From the NCBI RefSeq assembly GCF_008802365.1, contig NZ_VZQZ01000011.1, positions 129,501-193,500 on the forward strand: 64,000 nucleotides of DNA, written 5' to 3'. Below, piece after piece: positions 29,266 to 38,082 of the stretch. Position 1 is the first letter of the stretch, and each line of letters opens with the position of its first letter. The DNA comes from Oryzomonas japonica (GTDB lineage: Bacteria > Desulfobacterota > Desulfuromonadia > Geobacterales > Pseudopelobacteraceae). Made by a program: the position numbers and the translations under genes. Under the pieces are notes generated by a model that did no database searches, was not told where the DNA came from, and saw only the letters and a list, made by a program, of their open reading frames with translations.

Positions 29266-29844
29266 ATGGCAAAACTTGATAAGCGTAGTGAAATAGTGCG
29301 TGCGGCGGTGCAGATCATCGCCGACCAGGGATTCCATGGCTCCCCCATGGCCATGATCGCCGAGCGGGCCGGGGTGGCGGCCGGGACGATCTACTGCTAC
29401 TTCGAGAGCAAGGACATCCTCATCAAGGAGTTGTATCGGGAGATAGAGGGGAAATTACTGGAGGCGCTCCGGGTTGGCTACCAGACGGAACGCCCCATCA
29501 GGGAGCGTTTTCTGCACCTCGGCATCAACTTCCTCAAGTACTTCGTTGCCCACCCCCTCGAATCCAAGTACATGGAGCAGTTTCACAACTCCCCCTATGG
29601 AGTGGACCTGCGCCGGGGCAGGTTTGCCAAAGAATTCAAGGACGACGACCTCCTGTATCTGGAGTTGTTCGAGCAGGGAGTCGCCCAGCAGGTCATCAAG
29701 GACCTGCCCACTATCTTACTCTTTGCCCTGGCCTTCGGACCAGTGATCACCCTGACCCGGGACCATATTCTCGGGTTTATAGAACTGGACGACGCGCTCA
29801 TTGAGAAGACCATCGCGGCATGCTGGGACGGCATCAAACGATAG
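29266..29844 (+). CDS. TetR/AcrR family transcriptional regulator
   Basis: HTH region (AVQIIADQGFHGSPMAMIAERAGVAAGTIYCYFESKD). Confidence 0.75.
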   Translation: MAKLDKRSEIVRAAVQIIADQGFHGSPMAMIAERAGVAAGTIYCYFESKDILIKELYREIEGKLLEALRVGYQTERPIRERFLHLGINFLKYFVAHPLESKYMEQFHNSPYGVDLRRGRFAKEFKDDDLLYLELFEQGVAQQVIKDLPTILLFALAFGPVITLTRDHILGFIELDDALIEKTIAACWDGIKR

Positions 29845-29881
29845 GCCGGCGTTGTCAAAAAAACCGCATGAAGGACCCGAT

Positions 29882-32521
29882 ATGACAGAAACTGCCCATA
29901 CCACCATTCACCGTCACGATTACCGTCCGCCCGACTATACCGTTGAAAGCGTCGATCTCCGCTTTGAGTTGGGGGAGGACACGACGCTCGTCCGCTCCCG
30001 CCTTGCCCTGCGGGCGGCTTATGACCGCTCCGGGGGAGAGCGGCCGTTGGTTCTGGACGGCCACCGTTTCGTACTGCGCAGCCTCTCCCTCGACGGGACG
30101 CCCCTTGCCCCGGAGGCCTTCCAGGTGTCGGCAGAGACGCTCGTCGTGCCGTCGGTTCCCGCCAGCTTCACCCTGGAGGTGGAAACCGAACTGCGCCCCC
30201 AGGACAATACCTTTCTCGAAGGGCTCTATCGCTCCAACGGGATGTTCTGTACCCAGTGCGAGGCCCAGGGTTTCCGCTCCATCACCTACTACCCGGACCG
30301 TCCCGATGTCCTTTCCATCTTCACCGTCACCGTCGTCGCCGACCGCGAGCGCTACCCGGTGCTTCTGTCCAACGGCAACCCGCTGGACAGGGGCGAACTG
30401 CCGGATGGCCGCCACTTCATCACCTGGCACGACCCGTTCAGGAAGCCGAGCTACCTCTTCGCCCTGGTGGCCGGCAGGCTGGCCTGCATCGAGGACTCTT
30501 TTACGACCTGCTCGGGCCGGGAGGTGAGCCTGCGGCTCTATCTCCAGGAGGCCAACCGCAACAAGGGTGGGCACGCCCTCCGTTCCCTGAAAAAGGCCAT
30601 GCGCTGGGACGAGGAAACCTTTGGCCGGGAATACGACCTGGACTGCTACATGATCGTGGCGGTGGACGATTTCAACATGGGGGCCATGGAAAACAAGGGG
30701 CTCAACATCTTCAATTCCTGCTACGTCCTGGCCACCCCCGAAACCGCCACAGATACGGACTACCAGGCCATCGAGGAGGTCATCGGCCACGAGTATTTCC
30801 ATAACTGGAGCGGCAACCGGGTTACCTGCCGCGACTGGTTCCAGCTCTCCCTCAAAGAGGGGCTCACCATCTTCCGCGACCAGGAGTTTTCCGCCGACAT
30901 GGAATCGCGCGGCGTGAAGCGCATCGCCGATGTCCGCTACCTGCGCACCGCACAGTTCGCCGAGGATGGCGGCCCGCTGGCGCACCCGGTCCGCCCCGAA
31001 TCCTACATGGAGATCAACAACTTCTACACCGCGACCGTCTACAACAAGGGGGGTGAGCTGATCCGCATGCTCCGCACCTTGCTGGGCGCAGAGCGTTTCA
31101 GAAAGGGTATGGACCTCTACTTCGAACGCCATGACGGGCAGGCGGTCACGATTGAGGACTTTGTCCAGGCCATGGCCGATGCGAGTAATATGGACCTCGG
31201 TCAGTTCCGCCTCTGGTACAGCCAGGCCGGAACGCCGCTTATGGAGGCATCGAGCTCATTTGAAGCGGCCGACGGCGTCTTCACTCTGACGGTGCGCCAG
31301 TCCTGCCCCCCCACCCCTGGGCAGCCGGATAAACAACCGTTCCACATCCCGCTGGTCGTCGGCCTCCTGGACCGGGCCGGCCGGGAGCTTCCCGTCACCC
31401 TGTTCGGCGAACCGGCGCCCGGCCCCACCACCAGGATTCTCGAGGTGAACAGGGCCGAACAGACGTTTCACTTCTCCGGTCTGGACAGCGAGCCGGTGCC
31501 GGCCCTGCTGCGCGGCTACTCTGCCCCGGTAAAGCTGGATTACCCCTACCGCCCTGACGACCTCGTACTTCTCATGGCCCACGAGACCGATCCGTTCTGT
31601 CGCTGGGAAGCGGGCCAGCAATTGGCGGCGCAGGTCATTCTCTCCCTGGTGGCCGACCAGCAGGCCGGCCGGGAACTCAAGCCGGACCAGGCGTTCGTGG
31701 CGGCCTACCGAGCCGCCCTTACCAGTGGGGAGCCGGATCGAGCCTTTCTGGCCGAGGCGCTCACGCTGCCGTCGGAGAAATACTTGGCCGAACTGATGCC
31801 GGTCATTGACCCGGAGGCCATCCACATCGCCCGCAGGTTCATGATCCACACCCTGGCGACGCAGTTGCGGAGCGATTTTCTGGCGGTGCGCGAGGCGTGC
31901 CGCAGTGCGCTCCCCTACGGGGTGGACGACGGCCGTTCGGGAGAACGCCGCCTGGCCAACCTCTGTTTGGCCTACCTGATGAGTCTGGAAGAGCAGGCCA
32001 TCACCGAACTCTGCATCCAGCAGTACCGCACATCGGACAACATGACCGACACCATGGGGGCGCTTGGGCCGCTGGCCTCGTGCGACTGCCCCGAGCGCAG
32101 CCAGGTGCTGGAGGATTTCTACCGTCACTGGCAGGGAGATCGCCTCGTGGTGGACAAGTGGTTCTCGCTCAGAGCCCTGTCGGATCTCCCCGGCACCCTT
32201 GACGACGCCCGGGCGCTCATCGGCCATCCGGCTTTCGAACTTGCCAATCCCAACCGTTTCCGCGCCCTGGTAGGAGCCTTCAGCCAGAACCAGCCCCACT
32301 TCCATGCCCCCGACGGCGCAGGTTACCGGTTTCTGGTCGATCAACTGCTCCGCCTCATCCCGCTCAACCCCCAGGTTTCCGCCCGCCTGCTTGCGCCGTT
32401 GACCACTTGGCGGCGCTTCGAGCCGGGGAGACAGGCGCTCATGCAGCAGGAGTTGAGACGGATCCAGGCACTTCCCCAATTGCCCAGGGATGTCTATGAG
32501 GTCGTAGAAAAGAGCCTGTAA
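29882..32521 (+). CDS. pepN: aminopeptidase N (M1 family)
   Basis: Gluzincin HEYFHNWSGNRVT...LKEGLT motif and GAMEN exopeptidase motif. 879 aa. Start at MTETAHTT chosen over the upstream in-frame ATG. Confidence 0.9.
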   Translation: MTETAHTTIHRHDYRPPDYTVESVDLRFELGEDTTLVRSRLALRAAYDRSGGERPLVLDGHRFVLRSLSLDGTPLAPEAFQVSAETLVVPSVPASFTLEVETELRPQDNTFLEGLYRSNGMFCTQCEAQGFRSITYYPDRPDVLSIFTVTVVADRERYPVLLSNGNPLDRGELPDGRHFITWHDPFRKPSYLFALVAGRLACIEDSFTTCSGREVSLRLYLQEANRNKGGHALRSLKKAMRWDEETFGREYDLDCYMIVAVDDFNMGAMENKGLNIFNSCYVLATPETATDTDYQAIEEVIGHEYFHNWSGNRVTCRDWFQLSLKEGLTIFRDQEFSADMESRGVKRIADVRYLRTAQFAEDGGPLAHPVRPESYMEINNFYTATVYNKGGELIRMLRTLLGAERFRKGMDLYFERHDGQAVTIEDFVQAMADASNMDLGQFRLWYSQAGTPLMEASSSFEAADGVFTLTVRQSCPPTPGQPDKQPFHIPLVVGLLDRAGRELPVTLFGEPAPGPTTRILEVNRAEQTFHFSGLDSEPVPALLRGYSAPVKLDYPYRPDDLVLLMAHETDPFCRWEAGQQLAAQVILSLVADQQAGRELKPDQAFVAAYRAALTSGEPDRAFLAEALTLPSEKYLAELMPVIDPEAIHIARRFMIHTLATQLRSDFLAVREACRSALPYGVDDGRSGERRLANLCLAYLMSLEEQAITELCIQQYRTSDNMTDTMGALGPLASCDCPERSQVLEDFYRHWQGDRLVVDKWFSLRALSDLPGTLDDARALIGHPAFELANPNRFRALVGAFSQNQPHFHAPDGAGYRFLVDQLLRLIPLNPQVSARLLAPLTTWRRFEPGRQALMQQELRRIQALPQLPRDVYEVVEKSL

Positions 32522-32604: not shown

Positions 32605-33017
32605 CTACCCGAGGCATTCCGGCAGTGAATATCCGGGATTGATAGGGATATCGAAATGTATCCCCGTTGAAAACTCCATGATTTTCTCGATCCGGACCAT
32701 GAACCTGGTCAAGGCGGGGGTAACGTCCAGTGGCCTAGGGACGGCGCGCTCTCCTTCGACCATATCGTCGTGGGGCTTGACGACCCGGCCGATCAACTGA
32801 TAGCCCGTCTTCGATCCGGGCGCGGCCACAACAACCGCAACATGGGTGTTGCGGGTAATATTGTGCAGCGTCACCGGGCAAAACCAGTTTTCGAACACCA
32901 GAAGCGACCCGCCACTCACGGTCAGATGATTACCGGCTGCTACGTGAGGATGTCCCTTTGCATCCGCAGAAGCCACATAGACCACGGGAGTGCTTTCAAT
33001 GAACTGGCGCAGCGCTT
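32605..33017 (-). CDS. pyridoxamine 5-prime-phosphate oxidase-like FMN-binding protein
   Basis: 137 aa from MISEALRQFIESTPVVYVASADAKGHPHVAAG... Typical split-barrel. Upstream in-frame extension lacks coding character. Confidence 0.6.
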
Positions 33018-34154
33018 CCGAAATCATGTCGGCACCTCTTCTTGCAGCAACGCTCCCGAACACACAATGCGTATCAACTCTCACCACTCTTACAATACAT
33101 CGCAGGATACGCGCCAACAACACAACAAAAAAATAGCGCAATTAAATAAGCATATTGCAGCATCCGCCCAATCCTCTGCAATCAGGGGGAGTGCAATAAA
33201 ACTTGCAGCGGAAGCACGCATGAAACGAGTAATGGGCCTGAAAATGGCAATTTGCGGGGCGAGTACATCTTTATTGCTTATGCAACAAAGATTGCTGAAT
33301 ATGGGGCAGCGTCTGGGACGAGAGGACGACGGCCTGATCCTGCGGCGAAGGATACCTTACAGGCGCCTGCCGATGGCGCAGGCTTCCCTCCACACAACAA
33401 CGGTTCTACTGACGCACGTTGGCTCCCTTCTACCTGCGGCTCAAAAACTTAGCCTGCGCTCCTCACCCGCACCGGTTCGGAAAGTTCCTTTACCTGGAAG
33501 CGGGATGAATTGGCCGACCTTGGCGACAACGTCTGCTCGGCACTCCCCGGGGCATGGAAGAAATTGTCCGATGAAGACAATCCATTCTTGGTAAAAATCC
33601 CCCTGGTGGTTTTGTAAACAGAACAAATCAATGGCTATATAATGCCCACCCCGGCCATTGGTGCGTTCAATCCGCCAGCGCCTATGACGTTGCGCACCCA
33701 AAGGATCTTCATAGTTATGCGTGCCGACTTTCTCCCCCTCTTCATACAATGCTACCAACCTCATAACTAACGAACACGACTATCGCATAGATGCTGAGGT
33801 CAAAGAGCCCCACGCATACTGTCAGGTGTGTAGCTCCACCGATATCGTCGGCCTTGACCGCAATAAGCGGTTGGCGAGCGATCTGCCTATATACGGTAAA
33901 CGAGTTGGAATCTATGTGGATACCGATTTTTTACTGCGTCAAAAAGATACAAATGAAGGGCGAAAGATATGCTTTCGGTGTTATGTTTTTATATAAAAAC
34001 AGATAGATAGGCATATTATACAAGCATGTTAATTATTTTAACACTTTGAAATTACATTGTGATTTTGTTTTCTGTCATGTAGAAGAAAGTATATTTTCAA
34101 TGATAAGCAATAGCCATCTAGTTGAAACGCGGAACATCACCTAGGAGGAACCTC

Positions 34155-36686
34155 ATGTACGATGCTGTAGCCCTCTTTTCCTGGATTGCCCATCATTACT
34201 ACTACTTTCTCGCCTTTACCGTCCTTGTCATCCTGCTCTGGAACTCGGTGGTGGTGGTCGGCGGCAACGAGATCGCCCTTATCGAACGCAGGTGGTTCGG
34301 CAGCAAGATGCCCCAGGGACGGGTCGTGGCCCTGGGCAAAGAGGTCGGCATCCAGGCGCGGACCCTCGGCCCCGGCCTGCATTTCCTGATTCCATTCATC
34401 TACAAGGCAACCAAGAGCGTCTTTACCGAGATTTTGGAGAACGAGATAGGCCTGATCGAGTCAGTGGATGGCTCGGCCATCCCCTCCGGACGAATTTTTG
34501 CCACGGTGGTGGCCGGCCATAACTCCTTTCAGGACGGCGAAACCTTCATCAAAAACGGCGGCCAGAAGGGGCCACAGATCGAGGTGCTGCCTCCGGGCAA
34601 ATACCGGATTAACCCCTACCTGTTCAAGCTGACCAAGGGGAGTGTCACCGAGATCAAGGATTTCGAGATCGGCATCGTGGAGTCGGTTGACGGCGTCGCC
34701 ATCCCGGAGGGAAAGATCTTTGCCCAGGCAGTGGCAGGCCACTCGTCCTTTCAGAACGGCGAGGCATTCATCACCAACAGCGGCCAGAAGGGGCCACAGA
34801 TCGAGATCATCCCGCCGGGCAACTACCGTATCAACCCCTATCTGTTCAAGGTAACAAAAGGCGAGGCCACCAAGATCAATGAAGGGGAGATCGGCCTGGT
34901 CGAGTCTGCCGATGGTTCTGCTATACCGGCCGGCCGCATCTTTGCCAATGTGGTGCCGGGACACAACTCCTTCCAATCCGGCCAGGATTTCATCAAGAGT
35001 GGCGGCCAGAAAGGGCCTCAGACAGAGATTCTGCCGCCGGGCGTCTACCGTATCCATCCGAATCTCTTCAAGATCACCAAGGCCGCAGCCGTGGTAATCG
35101 CCAAAGGCGAGGTCGGCATGGTCACGGCCCAGGACGGCGCCCCCATCCCCATGGGGCGGCTCCTGGCCCAGAGCGTACAGGGACACTCCAATTACGAAAA
35201 CGGCGAGGTGTTCCTGAAGAACGGCGGCCAGAAGGGCCCCCAGATCGACGTGCTGCTGCCGGGCACCTATCGCATCAACCTGAACCTGTTCCAGGTGCAG
35301 GTTGCTCCCGCCGTGGTCATCGAGGCCAACAAGGTCGGCCTGGTAACCGCCCTGGACGGCATCCCGCTGCCGGAACGGGAATACGTGGCCTCCCCCATCA
35401 GTGGCCACAACGATTACCAGGACGGTTCCGCCTTCCTGACCAAACAGGGACAACGCGGCCCGCAATTGGACGTGCTGCGGCCGGGCACCTATTACATCAA
35501 CCCGTTCATGTTCAGCGTAGAACTCGATGATGTGGCCGTGATCGAACGCGGTCAGGTCGGGGTCGTGGTGTCGAACGTGGGCGAGGACCCCACGGAGGAA
35601 ATGAAGAAACGGCTCGGTTCCTCACAGAATGGCGCCACTGAGGAAGAAGGCAAGGAAAAGTATGTCGTGCCCACGGGATTCCGCGGCATCCAGGAGGAGG
35701 TGGCCGGTCCGGGGCGCTATTACCTCAACCGCCGGGCTTTCATGGTGTACGTGATCGACACCACCAACATCACCATCGACTGGGACGACCAGGAAGACAC
35801 CCGCTTCGACCAGTTGACGGTCATTTCCAAGGACGGCTTCCCGATCCAGGTTTCGGTCAAGGTCGTGATCCGCGTGCGTCCGGACCAAGCCCCCTACATG
35901 GTGGCCAAGGTCGGCTCCATCGACAACCTGATCCAACACGTCATCCACCCCATGATCGACTCATCGTTCCGTAACCAGGCTTCCACCGCCTCGGCCATGA
36001 ACTTTCTCCAGAGCCGTTCGGAGGAGCAGACCAAGGCCGAAAACCGTGCCCGGACAGATCTTGAGCGCTATCACGTTGAGTGCGTGTCGGTCCTGATCTG
36101 CCAGATCCGCCTGCCCGAGGAATTGATGCAGACCCAGACCAAGCGGATCATCGCCGAGCAACAGCAGGAGATGTACAAGATGGAGCAAAGGTCCCAAGCG
36201 GAGCGCACCGAGATGGAGAAAATGCGCGCCACCGCCGACCAGCAGCCCACCCTGGTGGCATCGGAGATTGCCGTGAAGGTGGCCACCCAGAAGAAGACCG
36301 AGATGATCACCCTGGCCGAAGGCACGGCAGAGTCCAAGGCCTTGGAAGGCGTCGGCGAGGGCAAGCGGCTGAAGGCCATCGGCGACGGCGAAGCGTCCAA
36401 GATCGCGGCCATCGGTGAGGCGACCGCCCAGGCCTACAGCAAACAGCAGGAGGCCATCGGCGAAGAGGCCATCAAGCAGATCAAGATCGTTGAGCTGATC
36501 TCCACCGCCATCCAAAACGGCAACATCAAGATCGTCCCGGATGTCTTGGTCACGGGCGGCGGCAATGCCACGGAAGGGCTGATGGGGATGCTGACGAAAC
36601 TGCTGCCCGGAGTGGATATACCGGCGTTGGTGAAACAATCCGCACCATCTGCCGCGATAGGGCGACCGGAGTCGGGGCGGGCGTAA
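34155..36686 (+). CDS. flotillin/SPFH (band-7) family protein with N-terminal TM and five tandem 74-aa repeats
   Basis: RBS AGGAGG 6 nt upstream. TM anchor. Repeated SPFH-N-like units (EIGxVESxDG..IP.GrIFA..V.GH..FqnGe.F...GGQKGPQ.e.LpPG.YRINP.LF). C-terminal flotillin coiled-coil/EA-rich region (EQQQEMYKMEQRSQAE...). Confidence 0.8.
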   Translation: MYDAVALFSWIAHHYYYFLAFTVLVILLWNSVVVVGGNEIALIERRWFGSKMPQGRVVALGKEVGIQARTLGPGLHFLIPFIYKATKSVFTEILENEIGLIESVDGSAIPSGRIFATVVAGHNSFQDGETFIKNGGQKGPQIEVLPPGKYRINPYLFKLTKGSVTEIKDFEIGIVESVDGVAIPEGKIFAQAVAGHSSFQNGEAFITNSGQKGPQIEIIPPGNYRINPYLFKVTKGEATKINEGEIGLVESADGSAIPAGRIFANVVPGHNSFQSGQDFIKSGGQKGPQTEILPPGVYRIHPNLFKITKAAAVVIAKGEVGMVTAQDGAPIPMGRLLAQSVQGHSNYENGEVFLKNGGQKGPQIDVLLPGTYRINLNLFQVQVAPAVVIEANKVGLVTALDGIPLPEREYVASPISGHNDYQDGSAFLTKQGQRGPQLDVLRPGTYYINPFMFSVELDDVAVIERGQVGVVVSNVGEDPTEEMKKRLGSSQNGATEEEGKEKYVVPTGFRGIQEEVAGPGRYYLNRRAFMVYVIDTTNITIDWDDQEDTRFDQLTVISKDGFPIQVSVKVVIRVRPDQAPYMVAKVGSIDNLIQHVIHPMIDSSFRNQASTASAMNFLQSRSEEQTKAENRARTDLERYHVECVSVLICQIRLPEELMQTQTKRIIAEQQQEMYKMEQRSQAERTEMEKMRATADQQPTLVASEIAVKVATQKKTEMITLAEGTAESKALEGVGEGKRLKAIGDGEASKIAAIGEATAQAYSKQQEAIGEEAIKQIKIVELISTAIQNGNIKIVPDVLVTGGGNATEGLMGMLTKLLPGVDIPALVKQSAPSAAIGRPESGRA
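34443..35552 (+). repeat. intragenic tandem repeat, 5 x 222 bp (encodes the 74-aa units of the flotillin-like protein)
   Basis: Units begin EIGLIES, EIGIVES, EIGLVES, EVGMVTA and KVGLVTA with conserved GGQKGPQ..LPPG.YRINP cores. Degenerate copies flank on both sides. Confidence 0.7.
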
Positions 36687-36742: not shown

Positions 36743-37483
36743 ATGATCTGCCCCAAATGCACCCATGAACAGCCTGACGGCTCCGACCACTGCCTGCGTT
36801 GCGGCGTTATCTTCGCCAAGGTGCATTCTGCGCCGCAACTGGTAACCGTTGAAGTCGCCGCAACGCCTACCGCTACCTTGTCAGGGGTGACCGGTCCGTT
36901 CAAAGAACGACTGTTCGCGGTTGAGGCGGAGGAAAACCGGCTATTGCTGGCGGGACGTTTCTGCCTCTGGCTGGGCCTCGCCGTATGGGGAGTCCGGTTC
37001 ATGACGGCGCCAATCAGCGGGGAGTTTTTCAACCAATCGTTCATGCACCTGATCAACCTCCCTTTCCACGAGGCGGGTCACCTCTTTTTCTCTCCCTTCG
37101 GCAGATTTCTCCAGGTCCTGGGCGGTACCCTGGGGCAATGGATCATACCGTTAGTGGTAACAGTGGCCTTCCTTCTCAAGACGGACCGGTTTGCCGCCTC
37201 GGTCGGCCTCTGGTGGCTCGGCCAGAGCTTCATGGACATCGCGCCCTACATGGACGACGCCCGGGCCGGGCAGTTGATGCTCCTGGGCGGGGTTACCGGG
37301 AGCGAGGTGGCGGATTACCACGACTGGGAGATCATCCTGACCCGCCTGGGGTGGATGCGGTACGACCACCTCATCGCACGCCTCTCCTTCGGCTGCGGCG
37401 CGGTCCTGATGCTTGCGGCGCTCCTGTGGGGCGGCTGGGTGCTGTACCGCCAGAAGGGCGCGGGCGTATCGAGGCGTTCATGA
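36743..37483 (+). CDS. zinc-ribbon plus polytopic membrane protein with HEAGH (HExxH) motif
   Basis: N-terminal CPKC...CLRCG zinc ribbon. Then 5-6 TM helices with HEAGH in the first hydrophobic region. Stop overlaps the plsY start. Confidence 0.6.
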   Translation: MICPKCTHEQPDGSDHCLRCGVIFAKVHSAPQLVTVEVAATPTATLSGVTGPFKERLFAVEAEENRLLLAGRFCLWLGLAVWGVRFMTAPISGEFFNQSFMHLINLPFHEAGHLFFSPFGRFLQVLGGTLGQWIIPLVVTVAFLLKTDRFAASVGLWWLGQSFMDIAPYMDDARAGQLMLLGGVTGSEVADYHDWEIILTRLGWMRYDHLIARLSFGCGAVLMLAALLWGGWVLYRQKGAGVSRRS

Positions 37484-38082
37484 CACAAACCATTATCGCC
37501 ATAACCGTCGCCTACCTGCTGGGCTGTTTCGCCACCGGCTACTACCTGGTGCGGTTTTTGACCGGCCAGGATATCCGCGCCACTGCCAGCGGCAACCTGG
37601 GGAGCCGCAACGTGGGGCGTCTGTTGGGCACCAAAGGTTTTATCCTCACCTTTCTCGGCGATGCCGGGAAGGGGCTGCTGGCGGTCTGGCTGGCCCGTTA
37701 CCTGAGCCCCGCCCCGTGGCTTCCCTGCGCCGCCCTGCTGGCGGCTGTTGCCGGGCACATCTGGCCGATACAGCTCGGCCTGCGCGGCGGCAAGGGGTTC
37801 GCCACCTTCGCGGGTGGAATGATCCTGCTCAAGCCGCTGGTGCTGCTGACCGGCCTGGCCCTCTGCGCCGTGGCCTATCCGTTTCTGCGCGGCACCACCA
37901 AGACCGGCCTGGTGGCCCTGGCCTGCTCCCCCCTGTTTGTCGTAGCAGGGCATCTGCGGAGCGGCACCCCACCCGTATCGGTGGAAACGACGCTCTACTG
38001 CCTGCTGGTGCTCGTGGTCCTCTACGCCCACCGTACCAACATCCGCAAGGAATTTTTCAATCGCGGCGGCTGTTTGGGATAA
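37479..38082 (+). CDS. plsY: glycerol-3-phosphate acyltransferase PlsY
   Basis: SGNLGSRNVGR (SGNxGxxN) motif. Five-TM, 200-aa protein. Confidence 0.85.

Follow-up and report, generated by a model that had tools for sequence, protein, structure and literature searches.

Bacterial membrane-anchored SPFH proteins with tandem N-terminal beta units and a vault-like predicted architecture

We describe a widespread, unannotated and exceptionally conserved family of membrane-anchored, vault-like SPFH proteins, represented by one gene in a 64,000-nucleotide stretch of the Oryzomonas japonica genome (RefSeq assembly GCF_008802365.1, contig NZ_VZQZ01000011.1, positions 129,501 to 193,500 of the forward strand; hereafter the window, to which the positions below refer). 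Between an N-terminal membrane helix and the SPFH core, this protein has seven beta units which, by profile comparison, are copies of the N-terminal segment of the SPFH domain. Its predicted structure is closest to that of the eukaryotic major vault protein (MVP), and a cage standing on the membrane is the mechanism we infer for it. The parts of the gene are listed here with the evidence for each.

34155–36686, + strand: coding sequence of the SPFH repeat protein, 843 aa, stop codon at 36684–36686 (list of open reading frames, ORFs)
34164–34247, + strand: N-terminal hydrophobic helix (aa 4–31), predicted single membrane anchor (AlphaFold2, AF2, helices at aa 4–13 and 15–31; homologue N-termini)
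34251–34433, + strand: unit 0 (aa 33–93), a short copy without the 17-aa insert, with the classic SPFH N-terminal motif GPGLHFLIPF (Band_7 and hhalign matches, see below)
34434–34655, + strand: repeat R1 (aa 94–167; repeat hidden Markov model, HMM, 134 bits; alignments)
34656–34877, + strand: repeat R2 (aa 168–241; repeat HMM 134 bits)
34878–35099, + strand: repeat R3 (aa 242–315; repeat HMM 127 bits)
35100–35321, + strand: repeat R4 (aa 316–389; repeat HMM 127 bits)
35322–35543, + strand: repeat R5 (aa 390–463; repeat HMM 124 bits)
35544–35771, + strand: unit 6 (aa 464–539), a degenerate copy that doubles as the first SPFH strands (repeat HMM 15 bits; hhalign match, see below)
35664–36197, + strand: SPFH / Band 7 domain (aa 504–681), counterpart of the MVP 'shoulder' (Pfam Band_7)
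36117–36515, + strand: long C-terminal helices (aa 655–787), rich in Ala, Glu and Gly, corresponding to the coiled-coil of SPFH proteins and to the cap helix of MVP (AF2)
36516–36683, + strand: C-terminal tail (aa 788–843) with a conserved IKIVPDVLVTGGG segment, then a variable low-confidence end (alignment; predicted local distance difference test score, pLDDT, <50)

The + strand ORF that ends at 36686 has two possible starts, TTG 34122 and ATG 34155. A ribosome-binding site (RBS), AGGAGG at 34143–34148, lies 6 nt 5' of the ATG, and the N-termini of more than 80 homologues (85–91% identical) coincide with the residue equivalent to this start; the reading of the gene as an 843-aa protein, made earlier from the DNA alone (the original prediction), is therefore correct. 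The same prediction had described five well-conserved and two degenerate tandem units, and this description stands. With the recurrent P-G-x-Y/H motif as anchor, seven units with 74-aa spacing were recognized; an HMM built from the five full repeats scored R1–R5 at 124–134 bits, with units 0 and 6 as boundary copies. The tandem repetition is confirmed and is far beyond chance. R1–R3 share 62–70% of amino acids and 67–73% of nucleotides in pairwise comparisons (70% and 73% for R1 and R2), R4 and R5 are 36–51% identical to other units at the protein level, and Tandem Repeats Finder reported no more than the first 2.9 copies of a 222-bp period (34442–35083, 73% matches, score 618). Unit 6 has an extra acidic loop at aa ~476–503, which was modelled with low confidence.

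Each repeat had also been taken for an SPFH-N-like unit, with HMM searches suggested for every copy. Scanned singly, none of R1–R5 matched a Pfam family, Band_7 included, at E≤10, and because these scans were empty, SPFH homology was assessed by profile-profile comparison. A profile of 323 non-redundant units taken from relatives aligned by hhalign with unit 0 (95.5%, E 1.5e-8) over its full length except for a 17-residue deletion, and with unit 6 (96.8%, E 2.3e-10). Unit 0 is the only single unit that touches Pfam Band_7 (positions 12–36, E 0.019), and its motif aligns to 'PGLHFKIPF' of Escherichia coli HflC; the Band_7 match of the whole protein begins within unit 6 (profile position 10 = aa 504). 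Since the repeat profile matches both boundary units, and both match N-terminal positions of Band_7, R1–R5 are, on this profile evidence, tandem copies of the SPFH N-terminal beta segment, as had been proposed. Against all PDB sequences, the repeat profile gave only a chance match to ColH (E 0.17).

By sequence match and fold, the protein belongs to the SPFH / Band 7 superfamily. Pfam PF01145 (Band_7), the sole Pfam domain found, matched aa 504–681 with 90.2 bits (cut-off 23.6, E 2.2e-25), and the features of the superfamily are present: an alpha/beta SPFH fold, a membrane element before it and helices after it. The predicted anchor and C-terminal helical region were both recovered in the AF2 model (aa 4–31 and 655–787), the latter as helices at aa 655–731, 735–768 and 770–787 with pLDDT of 50–68. 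The hydrophobic N-terminus is conserved among homologues, and in the tail conserved columns of a 55-sequence alignment include K792, P795, D796 and G801. The 'SPFH' part of the earlier label, flotillin-like SPFH protein, thus held, and the 'flotillin' part did not: neither Pfam Flot nor NCBIfam FloT/FloA matched the protein at E≤1, and no NfeD-type partner gene was found. NCBIfam and PDB sequence searches yielded only faint matches to HflC at aa ~600–710, with NCBIfam TIGR01932 (hflC) at 20.9 bits versus a cut-off of 134.4, far short of equivalog level.

We therefore weighed whether the protein may be an ordinary bacterial flotillin-type microdomain scaffold, whose extra units would provide a multivalent lipid- or protein-binding surface rather than lengthen a wall. 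Like flotillins (FloT/YuaG, FloA, YqiK, flotillin-1/2), it has an anchor, an SPFH domain, Ala/Glu-rich helices and a Gly-rich C-terminal segment, and a 30%-identical relative from Rhizobium is named 'flotillin family protein' in RefSeq and faintly matches NCBIfam FloT (E 1.4e-4, 21 bits versus a cut-off of 700). Besides the absence of Flot, FloT and FloA matches for the window protein, flotillin ranks by fold (Foldseek) below prohibitin, HflC, stomatin and MVP, and solved eukaryotic flotillins contain no recognizable copy of the repeat (PDB sequence search). Prokaryotic flotillins have an NfeD-type (YuaF/YqiJ) operon partner (PMC2636767), whereas neither such a gene nor any other conserved neighbor accompanied the repeat protein in 70 related loci, which were obtained by a scan that took one genome per species. 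Finally, the repeats model as an extended MVP-like rod, and therefore only the first unit could lie at the membrane. Considering both sides, a flotillin-type scaffold is unlikely.

The AF2 model of the whole chain, made with the 55-sequence alignment, had a mean pLDDT of 75; most of each repeat unit scored 80–91 and the insert loops 70–76. Each modelled unit consists mostly of strands and one short helix. When the whole model was compared with the PDB by Foldseek, the top 12 matches were all MVP chains (E 7.8e-17 to 1.2e-12), aligned end to end over ~900 columns, followed by prohibitin, HflK/C, erlin, stomatin and flotillin at E 2.5e-10 or weaker. For a model of the repeats alone, all 15 matches at E≤1e-3 were MVP and the next match had E 0.3; behind MVP, the N-terminal unit of HflK/C aligned with a repeat unit over 72 columns with a probability of 0.69. 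As far as these models can tell, the closest solved structure is the eukaryotic MVP, a structure not considered in the original prediction, and the array, whose modelling had been suggested there, takes the form of an extended MVP-like rod. In the model, the protein has the MVP fold and order of parts, i.e., a beta-repeat array, an SPFH shoulder and a cap helix. MVP (PDB 4V60, 9MXV, 3GF5) has the same arrangement of beta-domain array, SPFH 'shoulder', long cap helix and C-terminal tail, it has a comparable length (861–893 aa, versus 843 aa here), and both proteins are very strongly conserved.

We suggest, as a reasonably probable explanation, that the protein is a membrane-anchored SPFH protein whose N-terminal beta unit was tandemly duplicated and which forms a vault-like homo-oligomeric cage on the membrane. 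Duplication of this membrane-proximal sub-domain has placed seven units between the membrane helix and the SPFH core. The monomer starts with the anchor, continues as a rod of seven beta units into the SPFH 'shoulder' and the long helical 'cap', and ends in a C-terminal tail; apart from the additional membrane anchor, MVP is built in this way. All SPFH proteins of known structure, among them MVP, form closed rings by lateral assembly, with the coiled-coils as a cap (PMC13100048; PMC12624060; PDB matches), and the MVP shoulder is an SPFH domain (PMC12280208). By analogy, the monomers could form a homo-oligomeric cage which would be anchored by the N-terminal helices and owe the greater length of its wall to the repeat rod. 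Taking ~2.5 nm for each MVP-type unit, we estimate that the seven-unit rod would add roughly 15–20 nm to the wall. Such a cage would be a half-vault capped by the membrane, and it would fence off part of the inner membrane together with the closed volume over it, probably on the cytoplasmic side, and copy number would set cage height across the family. We infer oligomerization into a cage, its height, its sidedness and any cargo or client; ring, subunit number and height are drawn from analogy with the solved structures. The earlier suggestion that multiplication of the unit could change oligomer geometry fits the modelled rod.

Two further observations are in line with this explanation. Every unit is extremely conserved, as would be expected if all surfaces of the protein made lattice contacts. 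The absence of a conserved partner gene favors a self-sufficient scaffold. Half vaults bind membranes via their N-terminal end (PMC13100048), and in the ECOD classification the N-terminal unit of ordinary archaeal SPFH proteins corresponds to one MVP repeat (PMC13607799). In comparison with other anchored members of the superfamily (HflK/C, QmcA, prohibitin, stomatin, erlin), the protein shares the N-terminal anchor, the SPFH domain and the coiled-coil, and its unit 0 shares their PGLHF.IPF motif; these proteins have one N-terminal beta unit, whereas seven are present here. Also different from the canonical SPFH cages, no association with FtsH or NfeD is evident from genomic context.

Several observations weigh against the vault-like cage. 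The model of the repeats alone had low confidence (pLDDT 57), and global TM-scores to full-length MVP were low (0.25–0.30), which we attribute to long rods bending differently. Pfam Vault (PF01505), Vault_2-4 and MVP_shoulder (PF11978) did not match the protein at E≤1 or single units at E≤10, and none of them was among the families listed for 54 diverse relatives. By hhalign, the family alignment compared with human MVP (query sequence checked as 100% identical to PDB 11dr_A) gave 3.6%, and the repeat profile compared with vertebrate MVP repeats R1–R9 gave <2%, both at noise level, the MVP profile being shallow because the MVP homologue search yielded only vertebrates. No conserved neighbor offers a functional clue. 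In addition, the charge argument for sidedness (see below) is weak, since HflC, which is periplasmic, likewise has an anchor followed by basic residues. Sequence homology to MVP, considered as a candidate, was rejected on the two hhalign comparisons.

These same comparisons bear on the idea that the protein is a true MVP orthologue which passed between bacteria and eukaryotes in one direction or the other. In favor of it, MVP ranks first among the whole-chain structural matches, and bacterial MVP homologues exist (bioRxiv 10.1101/872010; PMC3762200). Apart from the missing MVP families and the noise-level profile comparisons, the shoulder matches Band_7 and not MVP_shoulder, the repeat unit has 74 aa versus 53–56 aa in MVP, and a membrane anchor is present here and absent from MVP; orthology is thus extremely improbable. 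Other differences from MVP are as follows: there is no detectable sequence similarity; seven units of 57–76 aa occur here versus nine of ~53–78 aa; the units here are marked by a conserved GGQKGPQ / PPGxYRINP signature and by an insert of 17 aa that contains a short helix; MVP is soluble; no vault partner genes were found; and two 39-mer halves join via N-terminal repeats in MVP, whereas by analogy a half cage on the membrane would be expected here.

The cytoplasmic placement of the bulk of the protein is weakly suggested by charge: the N-terminus is short and acidic or neutral, with Arg/Lys (RR/K) after the helix. The same architecture could instead be periplasmic, as in HflK/C, with the repeat rod acting as a ruler or stalk toward peptidoglycan or the outer membrane. 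The total length that we estimate, with about 17 nm for the repeats and the shoulder and cap in addition, is of the same order as the width of the periplasm, and nearly all hosts are diderm. Against such a placement, no basic residue precedes the anchor in ~40 homologues, with RR/K following it, and distant relatives occur on plasmids of the monoderm Streptomyces and Clostridium. QmcA and YqiK, which face the cytoplasm, have a similar charge pattern. We give the periplasmic arrangement a low probability.

The family is large. The homologue search returned thousands of matches, and ~80 of the listed homologues were 85–91% identical to the window protein; nearly all full-length ones among these had five full repeats. 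More distant relatives had four repeats (~757–790 aa) or three (~672 aa). Synechocystis Sll1021, with ~673 aa, was considered as a candidate three-repeat member; it is called a 'flotillin homolog' in PMC9950537. An exhaustive search with the repeat profile detected 1,209 clusters at E≤1e-3 (clustering at 50% identity), with 605 of them reaching E≤1e-10, in which copy number ranged from 2 to about 14 and proteins were up to 1,802 aa long; the repeat period was 73–74 aa, with a second class of 85–87 aa. Band_7 followed the repeats in 51 of 54 diverse members. The original prediction had counted it as a refutation if the architecture were widespread and already described in characterized flotillins; the first half applies (about 1,200 clusters), whereas no characterized flotillin has the architecture as far as PDB sequences go, the repeat profile having found nothing there. 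Matches to Pfam CshA_repeat in long relatives were sums of weak matches with no significant single stretch, and were discarded as repeat-composition noise rather than kinship with adhesins.

In the scan of 70 loci, hosts included Geobacteraceae (among them isolates of Geomonas, Geobacter and Trichlorobacter thiogenes), Syntrophales, Candidatus Electronema, many Verrucomicrobiota (Akkermansiaceae), three Sericytochromatia and Paludibacterium purpuratum. Single contigs of metagenome-assembled genomes binned to other phyla were also present and were treated cautiously. Distant two-repeat relatives (~30% identity) were detected on plasmids of Rhizobium, Streptomyces, Clostridium and Ralstonia.

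Compared with window positions 34140–36640, the 70 loci showed DNA identity of 78–87% and protein identity of 87–91% across Desulfobacterota, Verrucomicrobiota, Sericytochromatia and Betaproteobacteria. Synonymous divergence (dS) between lineages ranged from 0.65 to saturation, and the ratio of nonsynonymous to synonymous divergence (dN/dS) was 0.02–0.1 at 87–91% amino acid identity. Copies in Geomonas edaphica and Geomonas sp. Red32 (89%) are as distant from each other as those of different phyla, and the GC content of the gene tracks that of the host contig (0.51–0.66). The combination of high dS, conserved protein and two Geomonas copies as distant as phyla points, at the sequence level, to very strong purifying selection and old horizontal spread.

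Each repeat is nearer to the same-numbered repeat of other species than to its own neighbors; R4, for example, shares 91% identity with its Paludibacterium counterpart R4 but 46–57% with the other units of the Paludibacterium protein. The duplications are therefore old, with no concerted evolution. Exact DNA matches between units extend over 26 bp at most (R1/R2) and do not exceed 17 bp elsewhere. One relative (P0078, 767 aa) lacks exactly aa 136–209, i.e., one unit, in register between R1 and R2, so unequal recombination does occur, though rarely. The array had been described as recombination-prone, with copy number varying between strains; this was mostly not the case, as nearly all listed full-length relatives at 85–91% identity keep five repeats, and only P0078, short of one unit, agrees with it. 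Two other altered copies were seen. In a contig of an uncultured Geobacter (L069, 7987–8628), an internal deletion joins the equivalents of window positions 34443 and 36278, and this dead allele has lost all repeats and the SPFH core. In Geomonas paludis (L061, 11869–12149), a second 3' fragment (equivalent to window positions 36288–36568) that is 84% identical lies ~1.4 kb downstream of the intact copy.

The genomic context of the gene is not conserved. DNA similarity ended at the gene boundaries in every one of the 70 related loci, with unrelated flanks, and ORF clustering found no flanking ORF family common to more than 8 of 71 loci; the gene is thus a lone cistron. None of its neighbors in the window recurred beside the SPFH gene at other loci, and no NfeD-type, FtsH or other fixed partner was found in the 70 loci.

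This context, together with domain fusions in distant members, bears on another possibility: that the protein forms part of a mobile conflict system (stress or anti-phage), in which the cage would be a sensor or effector scaffold working with other genes. Distant multi-repeat relatives are fused to a C-terminal VWA domain (13 of 54 diverse members) and, in a few cases, to STAND/AAA (nSTAND) or CHAT domains; the 13–14-repeat P0121 adjoins caspase-GUN4, VWA and PP2C genes; the window gene adjoins a remnant of an ISL3 element (see below); and the phyletic spread is patchy. The five-repeat clade, however, has no fused effector domain, no neighbor is conserved in the 70 loci, and the near saturation of synonymous sites between phyla excludes an element that swept recently. 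We consider a conflict system very unlikely for the protein in the window and retain the vault-like cage as our explanation. The P0121 locus is described here in its own right: this 1802-aa protein (L073, 3528–8936) has 13–14 repeat units, Band_7 and a C-terminal VWA domain, with a caspase (Peptidase_C14)-GUN4 gene on one side, VWA and PP2C phosphatase genes on the other, and an HTH regulator before it. It looks like a conflict or signalling cassette around what would be a very tall SPFH cage.

By sequence, a small number of MVP homologues are known in bacteria, including those of Myxococcales, Cytophagales and Oscillatoriales (Daly 2013, PMC3762200; Sokolskyi 2019, bioRxiv 10.1101/872010). 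A 'band 7' protein of Herpetosiphon was predicted to fold like MVP (PMC3762200), and MVP-like proteins of Asgard archaea were reported, one example of which has five repeats (PMC12962969). These proteins resemble the family described here in having MVP-type repeat(s) ahead of an SPFH/Band 7 shoulder. Most of them, however, were found via MVP sequence similarity or have a single repeat, whereas our family is invisible to MVP sequence models; judged by the published descriptions, it is further set apart by its anchor and by repeats that are tied by sequence to the SPFH N-terminus. We found no published description of a membrane-anchored multi-repeat bacterial SPFH family, the comparison with reported MVP-like proteins being by description only. 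A 2009 classification of prokaryotic SPFH proteins did not mention repeats, and Pfam contains no model for the repeat.

SPFH cages (HflK/C, prohibitin, stomatin, flotillin) and vaults form one structural class that was recognized only recently. Within it, MVP has been singled out because it carries repeats where the other SPFH cages carry a membrane motif (PMC13100048; 2026). The family described here unites repeats with a membrane anchor, and its repeats are traceable by sequence to the SPFH N-terminal unit, which offers a testable route to the origin of vault repeats. A bolder and tentative idea, which we hold possible but rather doubtful, is that the family is a bacterial membrane-tethered counterpart of vaults, forming inner-membrane cages of adjustable height (2 to ~14 units) around a compartment and retaining in its sequence how vault repeats arose, namely through tandem duplication of an SPFH protein's first beta unit. 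If so, the 'unique MVP domain' would be an SPFH sub-domain that has multiplied, and the recently observed binding of half vaults to membranes would be an ancestral trait and not an oddity. The range of copy numbers (2 to ~14 units) would provide a natural series of cages of differing wall length, with members in culturable Geomonas, Trichlorobacter thiogenes and Paludibacterium purpuratum. The family may also be of interest for engineering vault particles as containers. Conservation across phyla is above that of most housekeeping proteins, yet this is a lone gene, which points to an unrecognized, strongly selected membrane function.

Two features were assigned upstream of the gene.

33900–34154, + strand: AT-rich stretch with the RBS (AGGAGG, 34143–34148), GC 0.35–0.41 (composition profile, sequence)
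33721–33996, + strand: 91-aa ORF left over from the N-terminal part of an ISL3-family transposase, ~160 bp 5' of the gene (tblastn)

The region before the gene had been described as 1.1 kb of AT-rich non-coding DNA. The gap is 1013 bp long (33142–34154) and is AT-rich only in its last ~300 bp, GC being 0.51–0.58 over most of it and 0.35–0.41 in that last part; it also contains the transposase remnant. The stretch at 33900–34154 is probably the promoter region of the SPFH repeat gene. A promoter scan found no consensus sigma-70 site within it; the sole + strand promoter-like site of the gap was at 33615–33643, and the number of sites was not above that of shuffled sequence. Promoter and terminator scans of the gap did no better than shuffles, and an Rfam scan matched no family of non-coding RNA there.

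By tblastn, the 33721–33996 ORF matched 31 plasmid records with 41–48% identity over ~60–68 aa (E 6e-10 to 7e-11), and the matched plasmid features are annotated as 'ISL3 family transposase'; a Pfam scan of this ORF gave no match. It corresponds to the zinc-finger N-terminal part of an ISL3 transposase, the remainder of which is missing, i.e., a decayed insertion sequence directly 5' of the SPFH gene. Another ORF, at 33441–33764 (− strand), was considered as an IS5-type transposase fragment and dropped, having neither a Pfam nor a tblastn match.

Other genes around the SPFH gene were also noted. Upstream, between pepN (29801–32521) and the gene-poor gap, a 178-aa ORF at 32605–33141 (− strand) has a pyridoxamine 5'-phosphate oxidase-like domain (PNPOx_N, E 2.7e-9). 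Downstream, a 246-aa ORF at 36743–37483 (+ strand) starts 57 bp after the SPFH stop codon; it has a zinc-ribbon-like CxxC...CxxC N-terminus (weak match to Pfam DZR, E 0.019), the remainder appears by eye to be mostly strongly hydrophobic, and it is not beside the SPFH gene at any other locus. It is followed by plsY at 37483–38082. In Geomonas sp. Red32 (L071, 1–5928), a series of membrane-protease and other membrane genes, for DUF898, Peptidase_M48, DUF5684 and rhomboid protease proteins, lies upstream of the gene copy on the same strand; this arrangement is not among the neighbor families shared over the 70 loci, but it is suggestive because SPFH proteins are known to be linked to membrane proteases.

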